DNA of 64,000 bases from Candidatus Eiseniibacteriota bacterium (GTDB lineage Bacteria > Eisenbacteria > RBG-16-71-46 > JABDJR01). The translations under genes and the position numbers were made by a program. The stretch's first letter is position 1. Every line of letters begins with the position of its first letter. The notes under the pieces were generated by a model, which had not been told where the DNA came from, did no database searches, and saw nothing but the letters and a program-made list of their open reading frames with translations. The stretch lies in the NCBI GenBank assembly GCA_963768615.1, contig CAVYIE010000004.1, forward strand, positions 624,406 to 688,405. Reading direction: 5' to 3'. Positions 40,244 to 62,032 of the stretch are shown piece by piece.

Positions 40244-40381
40244 GATCGAACTCCTTTTCCGGACCGGGCCCCGACCTGGACCCGGCGCAAAGCCGGAAGA
40301 GCGTAGCACACCCCGGGTCCGCACTCAACCGGCGGATGGCGGCCGTTGTCAGCGCCCCGGCCCCGCCCGTACCCTGTCTCC

Positions 40382-42532
40382 ATGATCCCCACCGCCCCCC
40401 CTCCCGGCCCTCCCGAGACCGCCCCGGTGACCGTCCTGGCCGGGGTGGGGAAGACCGCGGCCGAGGCCCTGGAGCGCCTGGACGTCCGGACCCTGGAGGA
40501 CCTCCTCCGCCACTATCCGGTCCGGTGGGTGGACCGGCGCGAGATCCGCCCCCTGGGCGGGTTCACCCGGGCCGACGCCGCCGCCATGGAGCAGGGAGAG
40601 GACGGCCGGGTCCGGAAGGCGGTGTTCACCACCCTGGGCACGGTGGCCCGGGTGGAGAAGAAGGGGTTCAAGAAGTCCGAGCGCCTGGTGGTCACCCTCA
40701 CCGACGGCACGGGATCGGTGCCGATGGTCTTCTTCGGCGGGGTTTGGCGCCGCTCCCAGTTCCAGCCGGGGGACAAGGTCCTGGTCTCGGGCCCGGTCGG
40801 CTGGTACCGGGGCGGCGCCCAGTTCACCTCCCCCGAGTACGAGCTCCTGACCGACCTCGAGGAGAGCGAGATCCACACCGGCCGGCTGTACCCGGTGTAT
40901 CCGTCCACCCGGGGGGTCTCCCAGCGGAACCTCCGGACCTGGGTGCGGGCGGCCCTGGAGCGCACCCTCCCCACCCTGGCCGACCCGCTGCCGGAGGAGA
41001 TCCGCCTCCGCTACAAGCTGCTCCCCCTGGGCCCCGCCCTGGAGGGGATCCACTTTCCCGCCTCGCCGGAGGCGCGGGACGCCGCCCGCCGCCGGCTGGC
41101 CTTCGAGGAGATCTTCCTCGACCAGCTCTTCGTCCACGCGGTGCGGCTGCGGCGGGACCACGGCAAGGTGGCGGAGCGGATCCCCGGCCACGGCCCGCTC
41201 TTCCGGCGGATTCGGGCCTCGCTTCCCTTCCGGCTCACCCCCGACCAGGACCGGGTCCTGGACGAGATCCTCGAGGACCTGGACTCGGGACGGCCCATGA
41301 ACCGGCTGCTCCAGGGGGACGTGGGCTCGGGGAAGACGGTGGTGGCCTTCCTGGCCGCGGTGGCCGCCGCCGACGCGGGCATCCAGACCGCGTTCATGGT
41401 GCCGACCGAGATCCTGGCCGAGCAGCACCTGCGCAACCTCCGGGAGCTGGGCGCCCCCTTCGGGCTCGAGCCCAGGCTCCTGACCGGGAGCCTGAGCGGC
41501 CCCGCCCGGCGCGAGGTGCTGCGGGGGCTGGCCGACGGGAGCACCCCCCTCGTGGTGGGAACCCACGCCCTGTTCCAGGACGAGGTGCGCTTCCACCGCC
41601 TGGGCCTGGTGGTGGTGGACGAACAGCACCGCTTCGGGGTCATGCAGCGGGTGGCGCTCCTGGAGAAGGGCTCCGCCCCCCACGTGCTGGTCATGTCGGC
41701 CACTCCCATCCCCCGCAGCCTGGCCCTGGTCCGCTACGCGGACCTGGAGCTCTCGGTGATCCGCCACCGCCCCGCCGGCCGCGGCCGGGTGATCACCCGG
41801 GTCACCCCGGAGCACAAACGGCCCGCGGTCTACGAGTTCCTGGCCGAACGATTGCAGGAGGGACGCCAGGCTTTTATCGTTTATCCTCTGGTCGAGGAGT
41901 CGGAGAAGTCGGATCTCAAGGCGGCCGCGGTCATGGCCAAGCGCCTGGCCGCCCGCCCGGAGTTCCGGGGGTTCGGGGTGGCCCTGCTCCACGGCCAGAT
42001 GAAGCCGGAGGAGAAGGAGGCGGCCATGGCCCGGTTCGTCTCCGGCGAGATGCGGGTGCTGGTGGCGACCACGGTGGTGGAGGTGGGCATCGACGTGCCC
42101 AACGCCTCCTTCCTGATCATCGAGCACCCGGAGCGCTACGGGCTGAGCCAGCTCCACCAGCTCCGGGGCCGGGTGGGCCGGGGGAGCCACACGTCCTATT
42201 GCGTCCTCATGCTGGGCGAGAAGCTGGACCCCGGGACCCGGGAACGCCTGGAGCGGTTCGCGGCCATCGAGGACGGGTTCGCCCTGGCCGAGCTCGACCT
42301 GTCCCTCCGTGGCCAGGGCGACGTGGCCGGAGTGCGGCAGAGCGGCCGGCCGGGCTACAAGCTGGTCGATCCGCGCCGCGACGTGAAGATGATCGAGGTG
42401 GCGCGCACCGAGGCGCGCCGGGCGCTGGAAGGGGATGCCTTCTCCGGCGGGTGGGGTCCGGACTGGGAACCGCTCCGGAGACGCCTGCGGGCGCTGCTCG
42501 AGGCGGCGGGCCCCCTGGTGGACGCGGGTTGA
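40382..42532 (+). CDS. recG: ATP-dependent DNA helicase RecG
   Basis: RRLAFEE, LQGDVGSGKT, VDEQHRFGV, MSATPIPR and SQLHQLRGRVGRG motifs. Confidence 0.96.
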   Translation: MIPTAPPPGPPETAPVTVLAGVGKTAAEALERLDVRTLEDLLRHYPVRWVDRREIRPLGGFTRADAAAMEQGEDGRVRKAVFTTLGTVARVEKKGFKKSERLVVTLTDGTGSVPMVFFGGVWRRSQFQPGDKVLVSGPVGWYRGGAQFTSPEYELLTDLEESEIHTGRLYPVYPSTRGVSQRNLRTWVRAALERTLPTLADPLPEEIRLRYKLLPLGPALEGIHFPASPEARDAARRRLAFEEIFLDQLFVHAVRLRRDHGKVAERIPGHGPLFRRIRASLPFRLTPDQDRVLDEILEDLDSGRPMNRLLQGDVGSGKTVVAFLAAVAAADAGIQTAFMVPTEILAEQHLRNLRELGAPFGLEPRLLTGSLSGPARREVLRGLADGSTPLVVGTHALFQDEVRFHRLGLVVVDEQHRFGVMQRVALLEKGSAPHVLVMSATPIPRSLALVRYADLELSVIRHRPAGRGRVITRVTPEHKRPAVYEFLAERLQEGRQAFIVYPLVEESEKSDLKAAAVMAKRLAARPEFRGFGVALLHGQMKPEEKEAAMARFVSGEMRVLVATTVVEVGIDVPNASFLIIEHPERYGLSQLHQLRGRVGRGSHTSYCVLMLGEKLDPGTRERLERFAAIEDGFALAELDLSLRGQGDVAGVRQSGRPGYKLVDPRRDVKMIEVARTEARRALEGDAFSGGWGPDWEPLRRRLRALLEAAGPLVDAG

Positions 42533-42546
42533 ATGGAGGGCCGATC

Positions 42547-43053
42547 ATGATCCTTCGCTGTCCGGACTGCCGCTCGACCTACGAGGTGGCCGGCGACCGG
42601 GTGCCGGAGCCGGGGCAGAAGCTCCGCTGTCCCCGCTGCAAGGCGGTGTTCCCGGTGGCCTCGGCGGTGCAGGCGGACGCCGGGGCGACGTCGCCGGGGG
42701 GCCCCGTCCCGGCGCTCCCGCCCGGTCCCGGGGCCCGTAGCGCCTCGGAGCCCTCCCCCGATCCCCAGCCCCGGCCCGAGGCCCCGGCGCCCGCCCCGCC
42801 CCGGCCCCGGATCGTGGATCCCGCCCTGGCCCGGCGCATGGCCCGGGCCATGATCTCCGAGATGGTCCTGAACCGCCGCAGCGAACGGGACGAGGCCCTG
42901 CGCCGGGAGGAACTCCTCCTGCGTTTCGGGCCCGCCATCGCCGGCGCCTTCGACGTCTACCGGGGGAAGGTGTCCCCGGATCTCGACGCGGGCCCCCGGC
43001 TCTTCCGGGAGGCGGTCAACGAGATCCTGGGCGAGGGGCAGCCGATCCTTTGA
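42547..43053 (+). CDS. Zinc-ribbon (MJ0042-type) protein with Pro-rich linker and helical C-terminal domain
   Basis: CPDC...CPRC; GGAGG RBS; C-terminal ARRMARAMISEMVL...AVNEILGEG. Confidence 0.8.
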   Translation: MILRCPDCRSTYEVAGDRVPEPGQKLRCPRCKAVFPVASAVQADAGATSPGGPVPALPPGPGARSASEPSPDPQPRPEAPAPAPPRPRIVDPALARRMARAMISEMVLNRRSERDEALRREELLLRFGPAIAGAFDVYRGKVSPDLDAGPRLFREAVNEILGEGQPIL

Positions 43054-43960
43054 AGTCCGGCAGGGGAATCTCGCAGGCCGGCCCGTAGGCCCCCACCTGC
43101 CCGCACTCCCCCGCGTTCTCCGCCGAGCACCGGGAGTCCCGGCGCAGGGTGTAGACGTGGTGTTCCAGGTCGCAGAAGAGCGGGTCGTCGCTGAAGTCGC
43201 TCTCCGGGGCGGTGCAGTCAAGGTAGCCGCCGTTGGCGTTGTCGACCACGTCGTTGCACCCGCTGCTGTCGGCCAGGCTCGCCCCCTCCATGCAGGCCAG
43301 CCCGTAGTTGGCCGACCGGTAGACGATGGAGTTCCGGACGTCGGCCGCGGCGCCGCCGCGGGCCCGGATGCCGCAGTCCCCGGCCTGATCGATGGTGGTG
43401 CGGCGGCAGAGGAGGGCTGTCTTCCCGGTCACGTCCAGGGAGAAGGTGCCCGCCCCCCGCATGAGGTTGTCCTCGGCGGTGATCCGGACGCCCGATCCCG
43501 ACCCCATCCCCAGCACCTGGACCCCGCCTCCCACGAAGGCGCAGTCGCGCAGGGTGATCGCCCCCGATCCCGCGACCACCACGCCGGTGTCGGCGCCGGC
43601 CAGGGTCACGCCCTCCACCCGGGTGCCGGCCCGGGGGCTCTCGAACCGGAGGAGGGCCCGGAACAGCGGCCCCTGGAGGGTGGGATGGTTCTTGGAGCCC
43701 CGGATGACCAGGGGGGTCTGGGCGGATCGGAAGGTGACCGTCCCCGAGGCCGGCGCGGCCGGCCCGATGATGAGCAGGGTGTCGCCCGCGGCCATCGAAT
43801 CCGGGGCCTGGTCCAGGCTCAGGTCGGTGGGAACCAGGAAGACCCGGCCGGTGGCCGGGATCCGGGGCCGGGTGGTCCCGTCATCGTTGCACCCGGTCGC
43901 GAGCAGGAGGCCCAGACCGGCGAAGGCGAGGGCGATTCCGAAAGCGATGCGTCCGATCAT
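43016..43960 (-). CDS. Right-handed beta-helix lipoprotein
   Basis: LATGC lipobox; short beta repeats; C-terminal DPLFCD...YTL..DSRC...GAYGPAC. Confidence 0.75.
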   Translation of the reverse strand: MIGRIAFGIALAFAGLGLLLATGCNDDGTTRPRIPATGRVFLVPTDLSLDQAPDSMAAGDTLLIIGPAAPASGTVTFRSAQTPLVIRGSKNHPTLQGPLFRALLRFESPRAGTRVEGVTLAGADTGVVVAGSGAITLRDCAFVGGGVQVLGMGSGSGVRITAEDNLMRGAGTFSLDVTGKTALLCRRTTIDQAGDCGIRARGGAAADVRNSIVYRSANYGLACMEGASLADSSGCNDVVDNANGGYLDCTAPESDFSDDPLFCDLEHHVYTLRRDSRCSAENAGECGQVGAYGPACEIPLPDFKGSAAPRPGSR

Positions 43961-44190
43961 GAGGATCCTCCGCCAAGCCCAGGGGATAGACGCTGCCCCC
44001 GGGGGCGGCCCCGGGGCCGCCCTTCACGGGGGGGAGGGCGGCCGTGCGCCCGGAAGGAGCCCGAGCAGTATAGCCGACGGGCCGGGGGAGCAAAAGGAAC
44101 CGGCCCCGTGGGGGGGGCCGGTTCGAGGTCTGCCGCGGGGGGCGCCGGGCCGATCGGGGGGCGGAGGGAGGTTCGGAGCCTCCGCCGGGA

Positions 44191-44808
44191 TCAGTCCTTG
44201 ACGCTGCTGGCGAGCAGGGAACGCACCTCGGGGGCGACCATCTCGGAGCGGGTCACCAGGAGCAGGCGCAGCTCGTCGGCGCCGACGTTCCGGATGACCT
44301 GGTCCTTCTGGGCCTTCACGAAGATGGAATCTCCCGGATCCACCACGTAGTTGTCGCCCTGGATCTGGACCTCGCACTTCCCGCGCAGCACGTAGAGGAA
44401 GTACTCGTCCGGCACGCTCGGCCGGGGGTTCAGCCGCAGCTCGCCCGAGGCCAGCTCCAGGAACAGTACGTTGAAGGCGCCGGAGTTGGAGCGCGCGGTC
44501 AGGACCTCGACCGAGACGTTCTCCTGGGTGTTGAGGACCTTGCGCCCCTTGCCCTTGCGGACCAGCTCGACCTCCTTCATGCGCTCGTCCTCGAAGAACT
44601 CGGTCATGGGGACGTTGAGGGCCTGGGCGATCCGGTGCAGGGTGGCCAGGGAGGGGGACGAAACCCCGCGCTCGATGGTCGAGATCTGGCCGTTGGTGAT
44701 GCCGACCTGCTGGGCCAGCTCCAACTGGGTCAGGTTCTGCTCCTTGCGCAGTTTGCGGAGCTTCTGGCCCAGATACATCATGTGAACTCTCTCGTCATTC
44801 GTGTACAT
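44191..44808 (-). CDS. XRE-family HTH plus cupin transcriptional regulator
   Basis: LRKLRKEQNLTQLELA...ISTIERGVSSPSLATL; cupin EYFLYVLRG; start may be 44781-44808. Confidence 0.9.
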   Translation of the reverse strand: MYTNDERVHMMYLGQKLRKLRKEQNLTQLELAQQVGITNGQISTIERGVSSPSLATLHRIAQALNVPMTEFFEDERMKEVELVRKGKGRKVLNTQENVSVEVLTARSNSGAFNVLFLELASGELRLNPRPSVPDEYFLYVLRGKCEVQIQGDNYVVDPGDSIFVKAQKDQVIRNVGADELRLLLVTRSEMVAPEVRSLLASSVKD

Positions 44809-44898
44809 CGCGTTTCTCCGTAGCAGCCCGTTGCCAAGTCCGGGGGAAAAGGGCCCGACCGACCCTTGCTCCTACATGTAGAACCATCCCTCCTATAT

Positions 44899-44913
44899 TC
44901 ATATTCCGTGCCA
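44899..44913 (-). promoter_or_regulatory. Candidate variant sigma54 promoter for the XRE regulator
   Basis: TGGCACG-GAAT-ATGA: perfect -24 element, -12 GC replaced by GA. Confidence 0.4.
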
Positions 44914-45018
44914 ACTTCGGAGGGGGTCTGCAAGAAACAGTAACCAGCTTTGAGACAAAGAATTACAAAAGACGAGGATCGAGTGGACTATGAACCTGGA
45001 CAATCGAGATTGAAAGAT

Positions 45019-46374
45019 TCATGAGGAAGGCGAGGAAGTTTCTTTCAAGCCGTATTCCCGGATCTTCTTGCGCAGGGTGGGGCGCGAGACCCCCAGCACC
45101 TCGCAGGCGCGCCCCTGGTGCCACCCCACCGCGTCCAGAACCCGGTGCACGTGTTCGGCCTCCACCTCCTGCAGGCTCCGGAGCGGCGAGGGATGGGGCG
45201 ACTCGGTGAGGAGGGCTTCCTCCAGGCTCTTGGAGGGGAGTTCCAGCACCTCCCCCTTGCTCAGCACCACCGCCCGGGTGAGGACGTTCTCCAGTTCCCG
45301 GACGTTTCCCCGCCAGTCGTAGCGGACCAGCTGGGCCATGGTGTCGTCGGGGATCTTGTAGACCTCCTTGTGCACCTCGGTGTTGATCTTCTGGAGGAAG
45401 TGCTCGACCAGGAGGGGTATGTCCTCCCTCCGTTCCCGCAGCGGCGGCACGTGCACGGTGATGACCTTGAGGCGGTAGTAGAGGTCCTCGCGGAAGTTCC
45501 CGGCCGCGACCAGCGCCTCCAGGTTCCGGTTGGTGGCGGTCACCACCCGGGCATCGGTGTGCAGCACGTCGCTCCCCCCCACCCGGGTGAACTCCCGCTC
45601 CTGGAGTACCCGCAGGACCTTGGTCTGGAGGTTGGGCGACATGTCGCCGATCTCGTCCAGGAACATGGTGCCCTTGCCGGCCAGCTCGAACTTCCCCGGC
45701 TTGCGGTAGCTGGCCCCGGTGAAGGCCCCCTTCTCGTGGCCGAAGAGCTCGCTCTCCAGCAGGGTGTCCACGATGGCCGAGCAGTTGACCGAGATGAAGG
45801 GCTCGGCGGGGGAGGCGTTGGCGTGGATGGCGTGGGCCACCAGCTCCTTGCCGGTTCCGCTCTCGCCGGTGATGAGGACGGTGGTGTTGCTGGAGGAGAC
45901 CACCCCGATGGTCTTGTAGATCTCCAGCATCGGCTTGCTCTTGCCCACCAGCACGTGCTGCTTCACCGGCTCGCTGCGTTCGGCCTGGAGCCGGGACACG
46001 GCCTGGGTGAGCCGGCGGTTCTCCCGGGCCTTGTTGACCACGATCTCCAGCTTCTCGGGATCGAAGGGCTTGTCGATGTAGTCGAAGGCCCCGTGCTGCA
46101 TGGCCGCCACCGTGGTTTCCATGTCCTGGTAGGCGGTGATCATGATCACGTAGGCGTCGGCGTCCATGCGCCGGATCTCGCTCAGGACCTCGAGGCCGGT
46201 CCCGTCGGGAAGCCGCACGTCGCAGATCACGTAGTTCGGTTTGACCTCCTGGAACAACCGCAGACCCTCGGCCTTGGAGAGGGCGGTGTGGGTCTCGAAG
46301 TTCTTGCTCCGGAAGAACAGGGAGAGCTCCCGGCAGAGGTTGGTCTCGTCGTCGATGATCAGCAGGCGTTCCAT
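45019..46374 (-). CDS. NtrC-family sigma54-dependent response regulator
   Basis: Receiver domain (IDDE, CDVRLP), [14 protein letters not shown], Fis-type HTH. Confidence 0.95.
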
Positions 46375-46375
46375 G

Positions 46376-47527
46376 TCAGGCCTCATCGATCGGGGTCTCG
46401 GGCAGCCGGAGCGTCACCGTGGTTCCCCGTCCGGGAGTGGACTCCAGGTTCACCGTACCCCCGTGGAGGATCATGATCCTCTGCACGTTGGACAATCCCA
46501 GGCCGAGCTGCTGGGACGTGGTCGAGAAGAAGGGCTCGAAGACCCGGGCCTGGAGGTGGGGGGCGACGCCCGGCCCGTTGTCCCGCACCTCGACCAGCCA
46601 GTGGGTGCCCGCGGGGGCCGGCTGTCGCTTGACCACCACGTGCACCTCCCCCTTGTTCTCCATGGCCTCGGAGGCGTTCTGGACCACCTGGCTCACCGCC
46701 TGGGCGAACTGGCCGGGGTCGAGACGCAGCCGGGGCCCCGTCCGGGGGAACTGGCGGAAGAGGGCCACCGACTTCAGGGCCAGGGTGGGGCGCACGTCCT
46801 CGAGGCCCCGGTTGATGACCTCGATCAGGTTCAGGTTCTCGAAGCGCGGCTTGGGGGGGCGGGCGTAGTTGACCAGGGTGCGCAGGAAGAGCTCGATGCG
46901 GTTGGTCTCCTCCCGGGCGATGGAGAAATGGAGCGCCTCGTCCCCGACCGGGTCCCGTCCGTCCTCGAGCATGTAGAGGCTCATCTTGATCGCGGACAGG
47001 TGGTTCCGGATCTCGTGGGCCATGTTGTGGGCGATGAGGCCGAGGGTTCCGAGCTTCTCCTCGGCCACCAGCCGCTGCTGGAAGGCCCGCTGCTCGGTGA
47101 TGTCCCGGGCCACCCACACCAGCATGGGCGGCCCCCCCGACCGGCTCTGGAGGAGGGTGGTCTCCAGGAAGACCGGGAAGCTCGAGCCGTCCTTGCGGAA
47201 CCCGGTGCTCTCCCCCTTCCACCCTCCCCGCCCCGCTTCCCGGAGCAGGGCCTTGAATTCCCGGGGCTCCAGGGTGGGGCCGTTCAGGATCTCGATGCTC
47301 TGCCCGATGAGTTCCCCCAGTTCGTAGCCGAGGGCGTTGATGATGCGCCGGTTGACGTAGAGCAGCCGGCCCTCCAGGTCGGTGGCGGCGATGCCGACCG
47401 GGACCCCCTCCATGATCAGGAAGAGGTCCTCCACCTCCCGAGAGAGGGGGGCGTCCGGGCGGACTCTGGACCGGGAAAGTTGTTTTCCAATGGCCGGCCT
47501 TTCGGGCTCCGATGGAGCGAATTCCAA
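46376..47527 (-). CDS. Cytoplasmic PAS sensor histidine kinase (start uncertain)
   Basis: PAS domain (LLYVN), H-box AHEIRN, DNGPG, FEPFFST and GLGLS motifs; no TM segment seen. Confidence 0.9.
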   Translation of the reverse strand: MEFAPSEPERPAIGKQLSRSRVRPDAPLSREVEDLFLIMEGVPVGIAATDLEGRLLYVNRRIINALGYELGELIGQSIEILNGPTLEPREFKALLREAGRGGWKGESTGFRKDGSSFPVFLETTLLQSRSGGPPMLVWVARDITEQRAFQQRLVAEEKLGTLGLIAHNMAHEIRNHLSAIKMSLYMLEDGRDPVGDEALHFSIAREETNRIELFLRTLVNYARPPKPRFENLNLIEVINRGLEDVRPTLALKSVALFRQFPRTGPRLRLDPGQFAQAVSQVVQNASEAMENKGEVHVVVKRQPAPAGTHWLVEVRDNGPGVAPHLQARVFEPFFSTTSQQLGLGLSNVQRIMILHGGTVNLESTPGRGTTVTLRLPETPIDEA

Positions 47528-47612
47528 TATCGTCCTAAAGATAGAGGGGCGAAGTTGGATTCTTCAAGGCAAAGCGTGACCGGCGAGGGGGGGAGCCGGG
47601 AGGCGGGGGGGG

Positions 47613-47804
47613 TCAGCTCTGGGGCGGGGTGGGGTCGGCCACCACCGGCGCCGGGGCGTAGCCCGCATAGGCGGGGCAGTTCCGACGGATCGGGCAGCTG
47701 GGCGGACCCTGGGTCATGGGACAGGACCCCACCACCCGGTTGTGATGGCGGCAGTAGAAGGAATGAACCGGGGTGTCGGCGCCGCTCCGCTTGAACTTGA
47801 ACAT
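47613..47804 (-). CDS. 63-aa Cys/His-rich small protein
   Basis: MFKFKRSGADTPVHSFYCRHHNRVVGSCPMTQGPPSCPIRRNCPAYAGYAPAPVVADPTPPQS; GGAGG RBS; high GC3; lies just downstream of a sigma54 site. Confidence 0.7.
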   Translation of the reverse strand: MFKFKRSGADTPVHSFYCRHHNRVVGSCPMTQGPPSCPIRRNCPAYAGYAPAPVVADPTPPQS

Positions 47805-47852
47805 GCCCGTCGTGCCTCCGCCTGGATGCTGGTGGGTGATGCCCCCCTTCAA

Positions 47853-47868
47853 TGCAACTTGCGTGCCG
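47853..47868 (-). promoter_or_regulatory. sigma54 promoter
   Basis: CGGCACG-CAAG-TTGCA on the minus strand. Confidence 0.85.
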
Positions 47869-48095
47869 ACGCCGGGTTGAGGGATCGAGGCCGGGGCCGG
47901 CCGCCGTGCGGGATCGGGTAAGCGGCCGTGTCCAAAAGGGTTGTGTCCTGGGGGGCGTTCTCCGGGGCCTCGGGGGGACGGTCGGTGAGGCCGCAGTTCG
48001 CCCGGGCGGGCCGGGCAGGAATCCACCGCGGCGGCGCGAAACCACCCGATCGGGCCGGGAACGGCCCCGCCGGCGAGATTCCTCCCCGCCCCGCT

Positions 48096-48122
48096 TCAAG
48101 TCCGCCTCCGCCCCGCCGATAG
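48096..48122 (+). promoter_or_regulatory. sigma28 (FliA) promoter upstream of the MglA-like gene
   Basis: TCAAG-N14-GCCGATAG, 74 bp before ATG 48197. Confidence 0.8.
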
Positions 48123-48196
48123 ATGCACCAGAGGCGGATCCCGCCACGCGTGGATCCAGGTGAAGAGGGCTCCAGGGAACCAAGGGGGTTCGTCCC

Positions 48197-49627
48197 ATGG
48201 TCGTCGTGTCTTACTCGGGGAAAGAGATCAACGCCAAGCTGGTCTATTACGGTCCCGGACTCAGCGGGAAGACCACCAACCTCGAGTACATCTACCAGAG
48301 CGTGCCCAACAGCAACCGGGGCAAGATGGTCTCCATGAAGACCCGGACCGAGCGCACGCTCTTCTTCGACTTCCTGCCCGTGGACCTCGGGGAGATGGGC
48401 GGGTTCAAGACCCGGTTCCTTCTCTACACCGTGCCCGGCCAGGTCTATTACAACGCCACCCGGAAGCTGGTGCTCCGGGGGGTGGATGCGATCATCTTCG
48501 TGGCCGACTCCGCCCGGGGGAAGATGGACGAGAACCTCGAGTCCCTCCGGAACCTCCACGACAACCTCAAGGAGTACGGCCTTTCCCTCGACGAGATCCC
48601 CTTCGTGGTCCAGTACAACAAGCGGGACATCGAAGACGTGTACAGCGTCGAGGAACTGGAGCAGGCCCTGAACCCCACCGGGGCGCCCTACTACGAGGCG
48701 GTGGCCACCACCGGTCAGGGCGTATTCGAGACCTTCCGCGGCATCGCGCGGGTCCTGCTCCAGAAGCTCAGCAAGGAGATCAAGGTGGGCGAGGGACGCA
48801 GCCTGGAGGCGAAGTCGGCCGCGTTGGCGAGCCCGGCCGAGCCTGCGGCCCCGGGACGGAAGACGGAGGCGCCGGCCCCCGTTCCCCCCGCTCCGGCCCC
48901 CGTCGCCGAGACTCCTTCCTTTACCAAGCCGCCGCGGCCGGAGTTGGTCCGGGCCTCGGAGCCCGTTCCCGTGCCGGAGACCCAGGCGGGCCCGGTCCGG
49001 GGCGCGGAACCGGATCCGGAACCCCGGCCCGAGGCGGAAACCGAGCCCCTGGGGGCCGGGGACGGGGCCCAGGAAACCCCGGCCGAGACCCCCGCTCCGG
49101 CTCGCCGGTCCCCCTACGGACCGCCCCGCCGGCCCGCCTCGCCGCCCGCGCCGGAGCCCCGGGCTCCGGAGCCGGTCGCGGAGGAGCATGCGGAACCCGG
49201 GAAGCCCGCCCCGGCGCCGGAGGCGGTGGAGGCCCGGCCGGAACCGGCCCTCCCCAGCCCGCCCGAACCGGTGCGGGAGCCCGAGACCGTCACCGCGCAG
49301 CAAAGGACCGCCATGGCCGCACGCCCCCGACCCGACTCCGCCGCCGACCCCGAGGAGCGCCCCGGCTTCTGGGGCCGTCTCTTCGGCCGCGGGAACAAGG
49401 AAGAGCAGGGAGCCGGCGCCTCGCCGGCGACCCGGGAAGCCCGCCTGGCCCCGGTGGAGCTGCCCGCGGTGGGCGGCTCCGGGGACGCCTCCCCGGTGTT
49501 CATCGAGCGCCGGATCCAGGTCCCGATCACCCTCGGGCCCGAGGAGATGGTGCGGGGAGCGCGGCTCCGGCTGGTGCTGGAGATCCAGGTGGAGGCATCC
49601 GGCGAGTCCGGGAGCAAGGTGGCCTGA
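48197..49627 (+). CDS. mglA: MglA-family small GTPase with a long Pro/Glu/Ala-rich C-terminal extension
   Basis: EINAKLVYYGPGLSGKTTNL, RTLFFDFLP, LYTVPGQVYY and NKRD motifs; about 280-aa tail containing GFWGRLFGR. Confidence 0.9.
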   Translation: MVVVSYSGKEINAKLVYYGPGLSGKTTNLEYIYQSVPNSNRGKMVSMKTRTERTLFFDFLPVDLGEMGGFKTRFLLYTVPGQVYYNATRKLVLRGVDAIIFVADSARGKMDENLESLRNLHDNLKEYGLSLDEIPFVVQYNKRDIEDVYSVEELEQALNPTGAPYYEAVATTGQGVFETFRGIARVLLQKLSKEIKVGEGRSLEAKSAALASPAEPAAPGRKTEAPAPVPPAPAPVAETPSFTKPPRPELVRASEPVPVPETQAGPVRGAEPDPEPRPEAETEPLGAGDGAQETPAETPAPARRSPYGPPRRPASPPAPEPRAPEPVAEEHAEPGKPAPAPEAVEARPEPALPSPPEPVREPETVTAQQRTAMAARPRPDSAADPEERPGFWGRLFGRGNKEEQGAGASPATREARLAPVELPAVGGSGDASPVFIERRIQVPITLGPEEMVRGARLRLVLEIQVEASGESGSKVA

Positions 49628-49803
49628 CCGACCGCTTTCGGGACCGAAATCCCGGAGTTCGAGCCCGCCGACGGGGACCCAACCGGTCCCCGTCGGTGTA
49701 TAGAGGGACGGAACGGGGGCCGGCGCCGGTGTCCGGTTGACGGAGCCGGGACCCTCCACTACTCTTGATCCAGGTTCCGTCCAAGGCGTTCCGGAGGCCC
49801 GTC

Positions 49804-50316
49804 ATGCGCAAGTTCCAACCCCCCATCCTGGTCCTGATCGTATTCATCCTGGCCGCGGCCGGAGCGGGTCCGGTTTCGGCAGGGGTGCCCGCCTCCAATC
49901 CGCGGGCCATGGCCGGCATCTCCAGCGCCCCCTCGGTGGGGCTCCTGAACTCGGGCCTCCTGAACCTGTCCCGCTTCGACATCCACAACAGCCTGAGCTA
50001 TTCGGTGTCGTCCTCCTCCTTCGGCACCCGGTCGGCGGGACTCTGGCTCACCGAGATCGGCTACCGCGTCTCCGACCCGCTCCGGGTCTCCGTGGACGTG
50101 GGCGCCACCCTGAACCCGGCCTCGGACCAGCTCTTCAGCGAGAAGAACGTGTTCCTGCACCGGTTCGACCTCGACTACCGCCCCAGCGACAAGTTCCAGC
50201 TCAACCTCTCCTACGTGAACATGCCGCCCGACGCGGCCACCGCTCTCGGCTATCACAACTGGGGCTACTTCCCCGGCAGCCGTCCCTGGGGGTCGCCCCT
50301 GAGCGCGGGCCATTGA
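49804..50316 (+). CDS. Secreted, beta-strand-rich hypothetical protein
   Basis: Signal peptide; alternating-pattern beta strands (LSRFDIHNSLSYS...FDLDYRPSDKFQLNLSY). Confidence 0.7.
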   Translation: MRKFQPPILVLIVFILAAAGAGPVSAGVPASNPRAMAGISSAPSVGLLNSGLLNLSRFDIHNSLSYSVSSSSFGTRSAGLWLTEIGYRVSDPLRVSVDVGATLNPASDQLFSEKNVFLHRFDLDYRPSDKFQLNLSYVNMPPDAATALGYHNWGYFPGSRPWGSPLSAGH

Positions 50317-51464
50317 AGTTTCGTCCACCCGCCCCCCCTTCCCCCCCCAACGCCTCCTCCCCCTCGCACCGTGAGCTTCGCGGGCGGGCCGAGGACGCCG
50401 CCCGGCGCCTGAAGTCCGAGCCGGGGCGGCTGGACCTGGCCCTGGAGCTGGCCCAGACCCTGGAGCGGCTGGGGGAGCACCGCGACGCCCTCAGGGTGCT
50501 GGAGCGCATGAGCAAGCGCGGCGCGGCCACCCCGGAGCTGGTGCGGATGCGGGCGGAGTGCCTGCGGCAGGTGGGACGGGCCGAGGAGGGGGTGGGCGTC
50601 CTCGACGAGGCGGGGGAGATGCTGGCCGGGAGCGTGGCCGCCTGGATGACCCGGGCCCGCTGCCTGAGCGCGGCGGGGCGGATCGACGAGGCCATCGAGG
50701 CCGCCCAGGAGGCGGCCAAGCTGGATCCGCGGTCCGCCGACGCCCACTACGTCCAGGGCCTGGTCCTGGCCCGGGCGGACCGGGCCTTCGAGGCCGAGCA
50801 GGCCTACCACCGGGCGATCCGCCTGGATCCGGATCTGGCCAAGGCCCACATCAACCTGGGCATCCTCTACGACCGGCTCGGCCGCAAGGACGAGGCGGTG
50901 GGCGCGCTCCGCCGGGCCACGGTGTGCGATCCGGAGTGCGCGGCCGGGCACGCCAACCTGGGCGCCCTCTACGGCGAGCAGGGACGGCGGGAAGAGGCCT
51001 ACGCCGAGCTGAAGCGGGCGCTGGAGATCGATCCCCGCTCGGCCGAGGCCCACTTCAACCTGGCCATCCTCTACCTGGACGACGGACGGCTGGAGCAGGC
51101 GGACGAGGCCCTGGCCGAGGCCCGGCGCCTGGCTCCCACCGACGGCCGCATCCTCTACTACTCGGGGGTGCTGTCCCTCCGCCAGGGCCGGTACGGCGCC
51201 ACCGTTTCCCTCTTCCGCGAGTACACCCGCCTTCTCCCCGAGGACGCCCGTGGCCACTATCATCTCGGGGTGGGGCAGCTCCGCCTCGGCAAGTCGGACG
51301 ACGCGATCCGGAGCCTGCAGCAGGCGGTCAAGATCGACCCCGCCCACCAGCGCGCCCACTACTACCTGGGGGTGGCCTTCGACCAGAAGGGCATGAAGCA
51401 CGAGGCGCGCCTGGCCTACCACTCCGCCGACCGTCTGGACCGGGGCGGTCCCCCGCTCGGATAG
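50313..51464 (+). CDS. TPR-repeat protein
   Basis: TTG overlapping the upstream TGA; repeated A..NLG...DP..A.AH.NL units. Confidence 0.85.
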   Translation: MKFRPPAPPSPPNASSPSHRELRGRAEDAARRLKSEPGRLDLALELAQTLERLGEHRDALRVLERMSKRGAATPELVRMRAECLRQVGRAEEGVGVLDEAGEMLAGSVAAWMTRARCLSAAGRIDEAIEAAQEAAKLDPRSADAHYVQGLVLARADRAFEAEQAYHRAIRLDPDLAKAHINLGILYDRLGRKDEAVGALRRATVCDPECAAGHANLGALYGEQGRREEAYAELKRALEIDPRSAEAHFNLAILYLDDGRLEQADEALAEARRLAPTDGRILYYSGVLSLRQGRYGATVSLFREYTRLLPEDARGHYHLGVGQLRLGKSDDAIRSLQQAVKIDPAHQRAHYYLGVAFDQKGMKHEARLAYHSADRLDRGGPPLG

Positions 51465-51467
51465 CCG

Positions 51468-52265
51468 GTGTCCTTCCTCGACGCCGTGCTCCTGGGACTG
51501 GTCCAGGGGCTCACCGAATTCCTGCCCGTGTCCTCCTCCGGGCACCTGGTGCTGGCCGGGCGCCTGCTGAACCTGACCATGAACGGGGTGGCCTTCGAGA
51601 TCTGGCTGCACCTGGCCACCCTGGTCGCGGTGCTGGTGGCCCTGCGCTCGGACGTCTGGACCATGTTCCGGAGCCTGTCCCCGCGGGCCCCGGCGCCCAC
51701 CGCCCGGCGGGGCCGCACCCTGATCGCGGCCATGGTGATCGGCACCCTCCCCGCGGTGGTGATCGGACTGACCGCCAAGGACGCGGTGGAGGCGGCCTTC
51801 ACCAGCGTCCGGCTGGTGGGGGTGGACCTCCTCTTGACCGCGTTCATCCTCGCCCTCTCCCGCCTCTTCCCGGGGCGGGGCATGCCCCTCACCCCGCTCA
51901 AGGGACTGGGGATCGGGATCGCCCAGTGCATCGCCATCCTCCCCGGGGTGAGCCGCTCCGGGTCCACCCTCACCGCCGGGCTCATGTTCGGGCTCTCCGG
52001 CGAGGAGGCGGCCCGGTTCTCATTCCTCCTCTCGGTGCCGGCGATCCTGGGCGCGGTGGTGCTGGACGCCGGCGAGCTGGCCGCTCTCGGGCGCACCGAA
52101 CCCCTGCTCCTGGCCGCCAGCTTCCTGGTCGCCTCGGTGAGCGGGTACGTGGCCATCCGAATGGTCTGGCGGGTGATGGAACGGGGGAAGCTCATCGCCT
52201 TCGCGCCCTACTGCCTGCTCGTCGGCCTGGCCGCGCTCCTCATCGGCGGCAGCGTTCCGCGCTAG
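51468..52265 (+). CDS. uppP: Undecaprenyl-diphosphate phosphatase
   Basis: GLVQGLTEFLPVSSSGHL and PGVSRSGST motifs. Confidence 0.96.
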   Translation: MSFLDAVLLGLVQGLTEFLPVSSSGHLVLAGRLLNLTMNGVAFEIWLHLATLVAVLVALRSDVWTMFRSLSPRAPAPTARRGRTLIAAMVIGTLPAVVIGLTAKDAVEAAFTSVRLVGVDLLLTAFILALSRLFPGRGMPLTPLKGLGIGIAQCIAILPGVSRSGSTLTAGLMFGLSGEEAARFSFLLSVPAILGAVVLDAGELAALGRTEPLLLAASFLVASVSGYVAIRMVWRVMERGKLIAFAPYCLLVGLAALLIGGSVPR

Positions 52266-52352: not shown

Positions 52353-53795
52353 ATGCCGTGCCCCCGCGACTCATCCCGCCCCCGCGCCGTGCGGGTCGCG
52401 GGCCTCTTCGCCGCCCTGCCTGCCCTGGCCCTCCTGCTGTTCCTGGCCTCGCCGGGCCTCGCCGCGCCCTATTCCCCGGCCCAGGGGCTGGCGTCCTTCG
52501 ACCAGGTGGACCGGGTCATCGCCGAGCACTACTACGATCCCACCTTCGGCGGAGTGGACTGGGATGCCTGGTGCGCCGAGCTTCGCCCGCGGGCGGCGGC
52601 GGCCGGGGACATCCAGCACCTGCGGGGGGTGCTCTGGGATCTTCTTCTCCGGCTGCCCAGCTCCCACGTGGGCCTCCTTCCCGCCGCCGCGGACACCTCG
52701 CTGCTCCCTCTGCCGCCGGGAGCGGAGGCGGACCGGCGCCTGGCCTGGACCCTGCTCGCCGCGGTGCCACGGTACCTGGGCCGCGCCGACCCCGGCATCG
52801 ACGCCCGGATCCTGGACGGGGAGGCGGTGGTCTGGCGGATCCGGCCGGGAAGCCCGGCCGACCGCGCCGGCGTCCGGCCGGGTTGGATCGTGCGAGCGGT
52901 GGCCGGGCGTCCGCTGGAGGCTTCCTACCGGACGGTGCTGGACGAGCTGGGGACCCAGATCGGCAAGGAATCCCTGAGGAAGGTGGAAAGGCGGCTCCGC
53001 CTGGTCCTCCTCCGGGAGAAGCTGAGCGGGCGGGCGGAGAGCCGGGTGCCGGTGACCTTCGAGGACGGCGGTGGAGAGCGGCGCGCGATGGTCCTGACCC
53101 GGGAGGATCCCCCGGGGGCGGCGGTGAAGATCGGCGGCCTTCCCGCCCTCCACCCGGAGGTGGAGGCGCGCCGGATTCCGGTCGCCGGGGGCACGGTGGG
53201 CCTGCTCACCGTGAACGTGTGGGTCCCCTCGGTGCTGGAGCCGGTGCGGGCGGCCATGGACACCCTGCGCGACGCCGCCGGGCTGGTGCTGGACCTGCGG
53301 GGCAACCCGGGCGGCGACCATCGCCTGGCCGGACTCATGGCCGGCTACTTCCTCGACCGCGACGCCGACCTCGGCACCTTCCGCTCCCGGGAGGCCTCCT
53401 TCGCGGTGAAGGCGGTGCCGGGCTGGGTGGGAGGGGGCGAAGGGGCGTTCGTGCCCTTCGAGGGGCCGGTGGCCATCCTCACCGACGGGCTCACCGCCAG
53501 CACCTCGGAGATCCTCACCGCGGGGCTCAAGGACCTGGACCGGGCCCGCCAGTTCGGGGAGCCGACGGCGGGGGCCCTGCTGCTGGCCACGGTGGAGAGC
53601 CTGCCCGACGGCGACGGCCTCCTCTATCCCACCCACGCCTACCGCCGCCCCGACGGCGAGGCGGTGGAGGGGAAGCCCCTGAAGCCGGACGACGAGGAGA
53701 AGCTCCGGCGCAAGGACCTCCTGGAAGGGCGCGACCGGGCCCTGGAGGCGGCGGTGAAGTGGATCGTGGCCGAGCGCCGCTCGGACCGCCGCTGA
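52353..53795 (+). CDS. S41 family C-terminal processing peptidase with PDZ domain
   Basis: Signal peptide; GSPADRAG, LDLRGNPGG, TASTSE and GEPTAG motifs. Confidence 0.88.
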   Translation: MPCPRDSSRPRAVRVAGLFAALPALALLLFLASPGLAAPYSPAQGLASFDQVDRVIAEHYYDPTFGGVDWDAWCAELRPRAAAAGDIQHLRGVLWDLLLRLPSSHVGLLPAAADTSLLPLPPGAEADRRLAWTLLAAVPRYLGRADPGIDARILDGEAVVWRIRPGSPADRAGVRPGWIVRAVAGRPLEASYRTVLDELGTQIGKESLRKVERRLRLVLLREKLSGRAESRVPVTFEDGGGERRAMVLTREDPPGAAVKIGGLPALHPEVEARRIPVAGGTVGLLTVNVWVPSVLEPVRAAMDTLRDAAGLVLDLRGNPGGDHRLAGLMAGYFLDRDADLGTFRSREASFAVKAVPGWVGGGEGAFVPFEGPVAILTDGLTASTSEILTAGLKDLDRARQFGEPTAGALLLATVESLPDGDGLLYPTHAYRRPDGEAVEGKPLKPDDEEKLRRKDLLEGRDRALEAAVKWIVAERRSDRR

Positions 53796-60231: not shown

Positions 60232-61218
60232 GTGGGGGACGCACCGGTGAACGGACGGGACGGATTCGGAACGCGGGACGGGATCGCGGTGGGGCCCAGG
60301 CCGCGGCTCAAGCTGGTGCCGGGGGGACGGCCCGGCCTCGAGACGCCCCGCCCCCGGAGCCTGGCTCCGCTGCGCACCCTGGCCCTGGCCAGCGGCAAGG
60401 GCGGCGTGGGCAAGACCAGCCTCGCCGTGAACCTGGCCCTGGCCCTGGCCGATCTCCGCCAGCGGGTGCTGGTGGTGGACGGCGACCTGGGCCTGGGGAA
60501 GCTGGACCTGCTCATCGGGGCCACCCCGACGCTGCATCTCGGCCACGTCCTGGCCGGGGAGTGCGACATCCTGGATGCGGTGATCACCGGCCCCCGCGGG
60601 GTCCGGTTCCTGCCCGGCGCCTGCGGCGAGGGTTCCCTGGCCGTGCTGGATCCTCTTCGGCGCCGCCGGCTCCTCGAGAGCCTGGATCGCTTCCGGGGCG
60701 CGGTGGACCTGGTCATCCTGGACCTGGCCACCGGGATCGGACCCAACGCCCTGGAGCTCGCCCGCGGCGCGGACGAGGTGGGCGTGGTCACCACCCCCGA
60801 GCCCACCGCCTACGCCGACGCCTACGCCCTGATCAAGCTTCTCTCCGGACGCGGTTCGCTGCCGCCCCGGATCGTGGTCAACCGGACCCGCGACGAGGAG
60901 GAGGGCCGCGAGACCTTCCTCCGCATCTCCACCACCGCCAAGCGGCACCTCGGGGTGTCCCCGACCTTCTGGGGCGCCATTCCCGAGGACGCGGCGGTGC
61001 AGGACGCGGTCCGCGGCCAGCTTCCCTTCACCCTGAGCGCGCCGGACGCCCCGGCCAGCCGCCACGTGCGGGAGCTGGCCTGGCGGATCGTGCGGGGCCG
61101 GCACCCCGACGGGGGGAACCGTGTTCCCGCGGCGGGGTTCGCCCCGTCCCCGGCCGCTCCCGGATCGCTCCGGCGGAGTGCCGCCGCCGGTGGACCGCCG
61201 CTGCCCGAGGCGGCCTGA
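60232..61218 (+). CDS. flhG: FlhG/FleN-type MinD-like ATPase (start 60232 or 60247)
   Basis: ASGKGGVGKT deviant Walker A, DGDLGLGKLD and TTPEPTAYADAYALIK motifs; adjacent to fliA. Confidence 0.88.
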   Translation: MGDAPVNGRDGFGTRDGIAVGPRPRLKLVPGGRPGLETPRPRSLAPLRTLALASGKGGVGKTSLAVNLALALADLRQRVLVVDGDLGLGKLDLLIGATPTLHLGHVLAGECDILDAVITGPRGVRFLPGACGEGSLAVLDPLRRRRLLESLDRFRGAVDLVILDLATGIGPNALELARGADEVGVVTTPEPTAYADAYALIKLLSGRGSLPPRIVVNRTRDEEEGRETFLRISTTAKRHLGVSPTFWGAIPEDAAVQDAVRGQLPFTLSAPDAPASRHVRELAWRIVRGRHPDGGNRVPAAGFAPSPAAPGSLRRSAAAGGPPLPEAA

Positions 61219-61258
61219 ACCCGTGACCTCACCGACTACCCGAAGGAGACCCACCGAC

Positions 61259-62032
61259 ATGGCCACGCAGCGCATCGCCACCCGCACCACGCCCGATCTT
61301 CCCGCCAAGCCGGGAAGCTGGAGCAAGCCGTCCAAGGACGAGGCCTACCGCCGCTATGCCCCGCTCATGAAGTACGTGGTGGACCGCGTGGCCTCCAACG
61401 TGCCCAAGTACGTGGAACGGGACGACCTGCTCAACGCCGCCGCCCTGGGGCTGTTCGATGCCCTGGAGAAGTACGACAGCGGCAAGGGAACCAAGTTCGA
61501 AACCTACGCGGTGTGGCGGATCCGGGGCGCGGTGCTGGACGAGCTGCGGGCCATGGACTGGGCCAGCCGTTCGGTGCGGCGCAAGGCGCGCCACGTGGAC
61601 ACCCTCACCCGGGACCTGGACCAGCGTCTGGGCCGGGCGGCCAGCGACGACGAGCTGGCCGAGGCCATGGAGATCTCCTCCACCGAGATGGCCCGGGTGC
61701 TGGAGGAGGTGCGCGGAGTGGTGCTCCTCTCCCTCAACCAGTCCCCCAACGACACCGAGGAAGGCCATTCGGGCGGCCTGGCCGAGGTGATCGAGGATCC
61801 CAACACCGAGGACGCCCTGGACGAGATCGAGAAGCAGCAGCTCTCCGAGGTGCTGGTGGACGTGATCAGCGATCTCTCCGAGCAGGAGAAGCTGGTGCTC
61901 GCCCTCTACTACTACGAGGAGATGACCTTGAAGGAGATCGGCCAGACCCTGGGCATCTCCGAGAGCCGGGTCTCCCAGATCCACACCAAGGCGATCTCCC
62001 GCCTCCGGGGGCGGATGCGGCGCGCCGCCTGA
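61259..62032 (+). CDS. fliA: FliA/WhiG-family sigma factor (sigma28)
   Basis: DDLLNAAALGL, KFETYAVWRIRGAVLDELRAMDWASRSVR and LKEIGQTLGISESRVSQIH motifs. Confidence 0.95.
   Translation: MATQRIATRTTPDLPAKPGSWSKPSKDEAYRRYAPLMKYVVDRVASNVPKYVERDDLLNAAALGLFDALEKYDSGKGTKFETYAVWRIRGAVLDELRAMDWASRSVRRKARHVDTLTRDLDQRLGRAASDDELAEAMEISSTEMARVLEEVRGVVLLSLNQSPNDTEEGHSGGLAEVIEDPNTEDALDEIEKQQLSEVLVDVISDLSEQEKLVLALYYYEEMTLKEIGQTLGISESRVSQIHTKAISRLRGRMRRAA

Follow-up and report, generated by a model that had tools for sequence, protein, structure and literature searches.

The small G protein MglA is the model for Ras-like control of polarity in bacteria, and what is understood of it rests on the cycle that it runs with MglB, and with RomRX, in a single organism. 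Switches of the MglA family that act without a cognate MglB are also known, namely SofG of Myxococcus xanthus (239 amino acids) and the MglA of Bdellovibrio bacteriovorus (197 amino acids) (PMC4316618), and both are devoid of the 280-residue tail, the MinD-like helix and the terminal VP motif described below. The tetratricopeptide repeat (TPR) proteins SgmX of Myxococcus and Bd2492 of Bdellovibrio are established MglA effectors (PMC7519303, PMC3983030), and Bdellovibrio MglA works with Bd2492 (PMC3983030). In this study we describe an mglA gene with a long tail that lies in 64,000 nt of a Candidatus Eiseniibacteriota genome (CAVYIE010000004.1, positions 624,406-688,405, forward strand), hereafter the window, in which all coordinates are given. 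Judging from sequence comparisons, this gene represents a distinct and monophyletic MglA subfamily that would operate without MglB, the Roadblock GTPase-activating protein (GAP). The gene is real and conserved, and for its tail a function can only be inferred, here from sequence. The gene and the parts of its product are as follows.

48197..49627, plus strand: long-tailed mglA gene, 476 amino acids plus stop
48197..48784, plus strand: MglA G domain, residues 1-196, with P-loop, Arg53, Gln82 and NKRD intact and with matches in the PDB
48785..49363, plus strand: Pro/Ala/Glu-rich, predicted intrinsically disordered linker, residues 197-389, recognised by composition, a third-position GC content (GC3) of 0.87 and predicted local distance difference test (pLDDT) scores of 40-65
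49364..49390, plus strand: basic amphipathic helix GFWGRLFGR, residues 390-398, resembling the membrane-targeting sequence (MTS) of MinD, recognised by hydrophobic moment and sub-clade conservation; putative membrane binding
49496..49591, plus strand: family-defining terminal motif, residues 434-465 (VFIERRIQVPITLGPEEMVRGARLRLVLEIQV), recognised by alignment conservation and pLDDT

The gene starts with ATG, has AAGGGGG 9 nt upstream and is the sole MglA copy in its genome. Residues 3-193 align end to end with Thermus thermophilus MglA (3t12, E = 1.5e-73) and match the M. xanthus MglA chains 5ymx, 6izw and 6h17 (E = 1.1e-72), with an identity to the G domains of these two organisms that we estimate from alignments at about 60-65% over 190 residues. 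Pfam gave weak Ras/Arf matches only, and NCBIfam holds no specific model. The G-domain similarity to characterised MglA places the protein in the MglA family (Group 1 of Wuichet and Sogaard-Andersen, 2014). Group 1 proteins are single-domain, with 150-240 residues and mglB within about four genes; the window protein has 476 residues (332-690 in the family) and its gene has no mglB at that distance. The initial annotation had reported intact GTPase motifs, including the Arg of RTLFFD and the Gln of PGQ, and these are all present: the P-loop GPGLSGKT, Arg53 in TERTLFFD, Gln82 in TVPGQ and NKRD correspond to the catalytic hallmarks of MglA, which are an intrinsic Arg, a Gln in a G3 without the usual Asp, a GxxxxGKT P-loop and an NKxD G4. 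Moreover, none of 35 long-tailed relatives departs from G19, K25, T26, R53, Q82, N141, K142 or D144, and Gly21 is kept in 34 of the 35, so that in comparison with the orphan MglAs the protein is not obviously locked in the GTP form. The beta2 strand TLFFDFLP, in which T54, F56, F57 and L60 are invariant, is likewise conserved among them. The protein thus has in common with the MglA of M. xanthus and T. thermophilus its P-loop, Arg53, the Gln82 of TVPGQ, NKRD and the beta2 strand that the screw mechanism involves. In the full-length AlphaFold2 model, residues 100-190 of the G domain have pLDDT above 90. Going by the residues retained, the gene product is predicted to be a hydrolysis-competent, Ras-like switch of the MglA type.

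To place the gene within the family, 160 mglA loci were collected from species genomes and metagenomes, and a hidden Markov model (HMM) of MglB was built from 43 genes that immediately precede classic mglA (192-225 amino acids). Where 1 kb or more of upstream sequence was available, mglB was found in the flank of 95 of 102 classic loci vs. 0 of 25 long-tailed ones. No Roadblock/MglB gene was detected in the genome of the window (4.62 Mb, 93.9% complete) with Pfam PF03259, and the best hit of the 43-gene model there, with filters off, had an E value of 4.5; the absence of a Roadblock gene on either side of mglA, as first annotated, therefore holds for the whole assembly. All nine genomes (G001-G009) of the genus, family and order of the window likewise have a single MglA and no Roadblock gene. 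By contrast, 15 of 21 genomes from other families of the class carry a Roadblock gene, always beside a second, short MglA; identity is 43-59% for this Roadblock-adjacent copy and 67-78% for the long-tailed copy, which is located elsewhere in the same genomes. A maximum-likelihood analysis of the G domain alone (35 long and 121 short proteins) joined the long-tailed MglAs in one clade with a support of 1.0, and the substitutions L47M, A48K, H75L, S88T, I92V and G98A, around switch I, beta3 and switch II, are fixed in it. Unlike the MglA of M. xanthus and T. thermophilus, then, the window protein has 476 rather than 195 residues, has no MglB in its genome and belongs to a separate clade with its own substitutions.

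Named records place the long clade in Candidatus Eisenbacteria, Krumholzibacteriota, Latescibacterota and a few other metagenome-assembled genomes. Since sister families possess both the long form and a separate pair of short mglA and mglB, the long form is best read as an old paralogue and not as a replacement for MglB, in line with the paralogy initially proposed, and the lineage of the window lost the classic mglBA pair later. The main survey of the MglA family was limited to G proteins of 150-240 amino acids (PMC4316618), and because of this length filter the whole branch was missed. While the MglA family itself is known, the long-tailed branch is undescribed in the literature that we searched, in which no paper linked MglA with Eisenbacteria or dealt with a tailed MglA.

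The tail consists for the most part of a linker with 23% Pro, 18% Ala and 14% Glu and a net acidic charge (37 D+E vs. 26 K+R), which agrees with its first description as Pro/Glu/Ala-rich. AlphaFold2 predicted it to be disordered, with no secondary structure, and its sequence and length vary among homologues, as reflected in total protein sizes of 332-690 amino acids. Nevertheless, GC3 in the mglA frame remains at 0.87-0.93 throughout the tail, all 25 relatives having the long form show open frames of 381-686 codons, and a search of 5.8 billion proteins, limited to lengths of 262-833 amino acids, returned more than 7,800 long homologues. Pfam and NCBIfam searches with the tail gave no match.

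The most conserved part of the tail is its end. The terminal motif comprises a strand-like segment (IQVPITL), a turn or short helix (PEEMVR) and a second strand-like segment (RLRLVLEIQV), and follows the pattern h-x-V-P-h-x-h, a turn of 5-9 residues, and h-x-[LI]-[RK]-h-x-[LF], in which h is hydrophobic. When the last 65 residues of 35 proteins from independent contigs were aligned, P443 was invariant and V442 was conserved in at least 90%. More than 150 sampled homologues retain the motif; it ends nearly all of 120 inspected, and the strict pattern occurs near the C-terminus in 127 of 140, the misses being variants that read REVPILVDL. One homologue of 477 amino acids (P0118) has a normal G domain followed by an Arg-rich tail without the motif and is most likely a frameshifted record. 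The motif had no Pfam match up to an E value of 10, a Foldseek search of the PDB with the tail model found no structural neighbour, and a motif profile run against 1.84 billion proteins retrieved only C-terminal fragments of long MglAs and one giant repeat adhesin. This adhesin (P0121, 3142 amino acids), the top match, has 11 copies of ITVPVTVTDEHGAKATSTLEITITGTNDKP, a repeat that corresponds to the last strand-turn-strand of a cadherin/Ig-like unit; the likeness is probably one of pattern only, and we judged the shared motif to be a chance resemblance.

The initial annotation had suggested a compact, beta-rich terminal segment serving as a built-in interaction domain. The conserved element stands, and the compact domain does not: modelling of the last 65 residues gave a pLDDT of 81-89 for the motif (82-85 in the full-length model) with no strand pairing, and both models show a short helix at PEEMVR and two strand-like segments that remain unpaired in the monomer. 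Because the pLDDT is unchanged without the G domain and no intramolecular strand pairs are formed, the motif can be considered autonomous, and docking on the G domain, which we considered as a candidate role, is not supported by confidence values that are equal with and without it. Besides, both segments alternate hydrophobic and polar residues, so that a hydrophobic face must be buried against something. Altogether, the motif looks neither like a compact domain nor like an element that depends on the G domain; in these models it looks like a docking or oligomerisation element of about 30 residues that would complete a sheet with something else.

Between linker and terminal motif lies GFWGRLFGR, whose position at 49364-49390 was given correctly from the beginning. 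The MTS of Escherichia coli MinD is KGFLKRLFGG (PMC5471200), with which the motif shares 6 of 9 residues and the amphipathic pattern F-x-x-R-L-F. The helical hydrophobic moment of the tail peaks here (0.72 for the 11-mer at 392), and that of the decamer is 0.56, vs. 0.45 for the MinD MTS; F391, W392, L395 and F396 fall on one arc of the helix, giving one hydrophobic and one basic face. In the 34 closest homologues, G390, F391, R394 and R398 each show conservation of at least 90%, which the flanking linker does not. Unlike in MinD, where the motif is C-terminal and carried by a ParA/MinD ATPase, it is here internal and carried by a Ras-like GTPase. The nucleotide-dependent dimerisation that gates membrane binding by MinD is not known for MglA. 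Membrane binding may reasonably be expected for the sub-clade that carries GFWGRLFGR, and the helix is a feature of this sub-clade, not one that defines the family. The tails of an Eisenbacteria sub-clade whose proteins start with VVVVSYSGKEIN (VVVVSY; P0074-P0119, L009-L019, L089-L096) share DYGREIELP, and no MinD-like helix was found in them. We also considered GFWGRLFGR as a mimic of MglB's Ct-helix (its helix at the C-terminus), given that RLFG also occurs in Gemmatimonadota MglB tails (...DEIDRLFGDL). This candidate was rejected because the motif is basic, while MglB's Ct-helix and the RomR element analogous to it are acidic and bind to a Lys/Arg pocket of MglA (PMC6785124).

With a small G domain linked through a disordered, hypervariable tether to an element that would bind membranes, the protein recalls eukaryotic Ras and Rho in its layout and, by its amphipathic helix, also Arf and Sar. 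It differs from Ras and Rho in having no lipidation motif, a tether of tenfold length and, after the helix, a terminal peptide motif, and the resemblance is one of analogy, not of homology.

The initial annotation made no mention of two elements around mglA, a conserved downstream TPR gene and a sigma-28-type promoter. These and the other features at this end of the window are listed below.

48097..48123, plus strand: site resembling a promoter of the sigma-28 (FliA) type, TCAAG-N14-GCCGATAG, at 74 nt upstream of the start codon; putative function
49805..50316, plus strand: small secreted protein of 170 amino acids from the ATG at 49805, with signal peptide; lineage-specific insert between mglA and the TPR gene
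50313..51464, plus strand: cytoplasmic TPR protein of 383 amino acids (Pfam TPR_2, E = 4e-45); candidate effector or partner
51468..52265, plus strand: uppP (BacA) (Pfam BacA, E = 4e-70), last gene of the mglA-TPR-uppP run
61121-62032: FliA/WhiG sigma factor (TIGR02479, 257 bits), 11.5 kb downstream of mglA

The TPR protein is made of near-consensus repeats throughout, its closest solved relatives in the PDB are generic peptide-binding TPR superhelices, and no signal peptide was found in its orthologues. The order mglA-TPR-uppP on the same strand is kept in 10 of the 11 relatives fetched from the class, and uppP itself is syntenic in all 11. Among wider long-tailed loci, including the deepest branches, a TPR gene follows on the same strand after 90-1000 nt in 10 of 21, vs. 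0 of 79 classic loci. A genetic linkage between mglA and a TPR-only protein, in a genome that also has type IV pilus genes (PilB-like, 485 bits; PilT-like; PilM, 217 bits), recalls the MglA-SgmX and MglA-Bd2492 pairs; unlike in those pairs, the link is here drawn from gene order alone, and the likeness is one of TPR architecture. The TTG start of the TPR gene (50313-50316) overlaps the TGA stop of the secreted 170-residue open reading frame (ORF) in ATTGA, which suggests that the two are translationally coupled; in a default ORF listing the TPR frame begins at 49737 and runs through Arg/Pro-rich sequence that looks out of frame. The secreted ORF was rejected as a conserved partner, since it is weakly conserved within the genus and family (36-45 bits), and it had no Pfam or NCBIfam match. 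Upstream of mglA, the full site TCAAG-N13-17-GCCGAT[AT] is present in 5 of 29 long-tail loci vs. 0 of 116 classic ones, and GCCGAT[AT] alone in 11 of 29 vs. 4 of 116.

Taken together, these observations lead us to lean, with little more than even confidence, towards a self-tethered, MglB-independent polarity switch, whose tail would be fixed by a membrane helix and a docking motif and which would act with a TPR effector or landmark. In such a switch, Arg53 and Gln82 of the G domain itself would serve its cycling between GTP and GDP, and some 190 disordered, Pro/Ala/Glu-rich residues would form the tether from which the domain hangs. Distally, this tether may be fixed first by the basic amphipathic, MinD-MTS-like helix on the cytoplasmic membrane, and secondly by the 30-residue terminal motif, whose two amphipathic strands would complete a beta-sheet, either with a partner or among several copies of the motif, and add avidity. 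The TPR protein, predicted to be co-transcribed, would probably serve as effector or landmark, the part played for MglA by SgmX and Bd2492, and the output would probably be polar control of the type IV pilus machinery encoded in the genome, which MglA positions in other bacteria. Expression of mglA appears, from the promoter-like site, to be driven by a FliA-type sigma factor.

Several findings weigh against such a switch. A recognisable MinD-like helix occurs in only 44 of 154 sampled long-tailed MglAs (about 30%), and it is internal, with about 78 residues between it and the C-terminus in the window protein and 84-180 in homologues, whereas in MinD and FtsA the motif is at the extreme C-terminus. 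Because of this position and this limited distribution, the tail cannot have membrane binding as its role throughout the family. The self-anchoring initially proposed is thus plausible and unproven, favoured by the top hydrophobic moment and the conservation in the closest homologues and disfavoured by the location and rarity of the helix. As for the terminal motif, AlphaFold2 confidence on 30 residues with an alignment of 35 sequences is weak evidence, and the full-length model has a pLDDT of only 41-57 over residues 1-60 (beta1, P-loop, switch I/II) despite their high conservation, for which the shallowness of the alignment, the lack of a nucleotide or the beta2 screw are possible causes. 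Regarding the partner, TPR proteins are common neighbours in general, the TPR gene is missing beside mglA in one genome of the order (G009), and the VVVVSY sub-clade has trpA downstream and no TPR neighbour, with trpA as the only gene recovered by neighbourhood clustering. Finally, the sigma-28 site is kept in a minority of relatives.

Among the other explanations, the one that survives best, although we regard it as fairly unlikely, is that the tail replaces MglB in cis, with the terminal hairpin or the acidic stretches folding onto the G domain and exerting GAP-like or exchange activity, either at the hydrophobic face of beta2 that MglB normally covers or at the alpha5/beta2-beta3 pocket that binds the MglB Ct-helix. 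It would account for the invariance of Arg53, Gln82, T54, F56, F57 and L60 in a genome and an order without MglB, even if the screw mechanism itself also explains that of beta2, and it agrees with the net acidic linker (37 D+E vs. 26 K+R) and with a terminal motif that is universal in the family. The pocket, formed in M. xanthus MglA by L64, I67, K181 and K185 (PMC6785124), is partly kept as L64, M67, R181 and R185; position 181 is R or K in 29 of 35 long MglAs, whereas position 185 is basic in only 15 of 35. On the other hand, GFWGRLFGR is basic and has the wrong charge for a Lys/Arg pocket, AlphaFold2 gave no sign of docking (motif pLDDT of 81-89 without the G domain and 82-85 with it), and because sister families have mglBA as well as the long form, the latter did not arise by replacing a lost MglB. 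An extended version, which we consider doubtful, would make the tail both an in-cis MglB and a polar landmark: the hairpin would dock on the beta2 face or pocket in one nucleotide state, acting as GAP, as guanine nucleotide exchange factor or by auto-inhibition, and would be released to the TPR partner at the membrane in the other. If this were true, one polypeptide would combine switch, regulator and anchor, and the long-tailed proteins would form a self-contained class of bacterial Ras-like switches.

In a further explanation, to which we give a similarly low probability, the tail is a disordered scaffold whose motif homo-oligomerises and whose linker clusters or condenses at the pole or division site, with neither specific membrane binding nor a TPR partnership. 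A linker of low complexity and variable length, in which only the end is conserved, is what such a scaffold would show, and two amphipathic strands without intramolecular pairing fit an intermolecular sheet; in addition, ftsA-ftsZ and the gene are about 10 kb apart, the latter in the conserved recG...mglA region. A scaffold fails, however, to explain why the helix is strongly conserved in its sub-clade and why a TPR gene on the same strand is kept across the deepest splits of the family.

It is improbable that the extreme C-terminus, with endings such as -KVA or -RAA and a free carboxylate, is a degradation or recognition tag, so that protein level rather than a GAP would reset the switch. Tags of the ssrA type ending in -LAA are read by ClpX, and of 153 long-tailed MglAs, 92 have -AA or -VA as their last two residues and 100 have a final Ala, vs. 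an Ala content of 16% in the tail; the window protein ends in -SKVA. Such endings are nonetheless not universal, as many sub-clades end in -ERQD, -IDD or -TGTR, the residues preceding -AA are charged and not hydrophobic, and no protease is linked to the neighbourhood, the S41 peptidase at 52353-53795 having a signal-peptide-like start and no synteny. No correlation was found between an -AA/-VA ending and TPR adjacency, and TPR-linked loci end in -IEP, -IID, -KKD and others. Lastly, although this stretch of 70-80% GC holds long spurious ORFs in all frames and one homologue (P0118) has a frameshifted-looking Arg-rich tail, a read-through or frameshift of a normal 195-residue mglA in a high-GC assembly is excluded because the terminal motif is conserved in frame in orthologues across phyla GC3 stays high in this frame, and open frames of 381-686 codons occur in all 25 long-form relatives; the absence of the tail from orthologues, which would have spoken for a read-through error, was thus not observed.

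Other observations concern the surroundings of the gene and variation in related MglAs. A conserved block spans 40346-52265 of the window and contains recG, followed on the minus strand by genes for a beta-helix protein, an HTH (helix-turn-helix)-cupin protein, a sigma-54 response regulator and a PAS kinase, and then mglA-TPR-uppP; its conservation extends over the family and order (L163-L173), and the linkage of recG, TPR and uppP is class-wide. The ftsA-ftsZ pair lies about 10 kb upstream of mglA. A classic-type MglA of 323 amino acids from a metagenome contig (L110:92-1063, Ga0315288_10450970) starts with MSMINYASREIN and ends in a hydrophobic, transmembrane-like tail, LVILICLLVAAALTGVACWFLG, which is a second and independent route to membrane tethering. 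Besides, four Gemmatimonadota metagenome-assembled genomes (L046, L054, L072, L075) encode short MglAs of 224-225 amino acids in which about 30 inserted residues (PDPYHPGELLIYQVDGQWIERAPYFE) directly precede G5, and these still adjoin mglB.

Overall, the long-tailed MglAs constitute a large natural family, with thousands of sequences from soil and sediment phyla without cultured members, in which the catalytic residues of MglA all persist, MglB has been given up, and a tether, a predicted membrane helix and a candidate docking motif have been added. Their existence raises the question of how a bacterial small GTPase is switched off and positioned without a Roadblock GAP, as well as that of an independent bacterial origin of disordered C-terminal membrane tethering, a hallmark of eukaryotic Ras and Rho.

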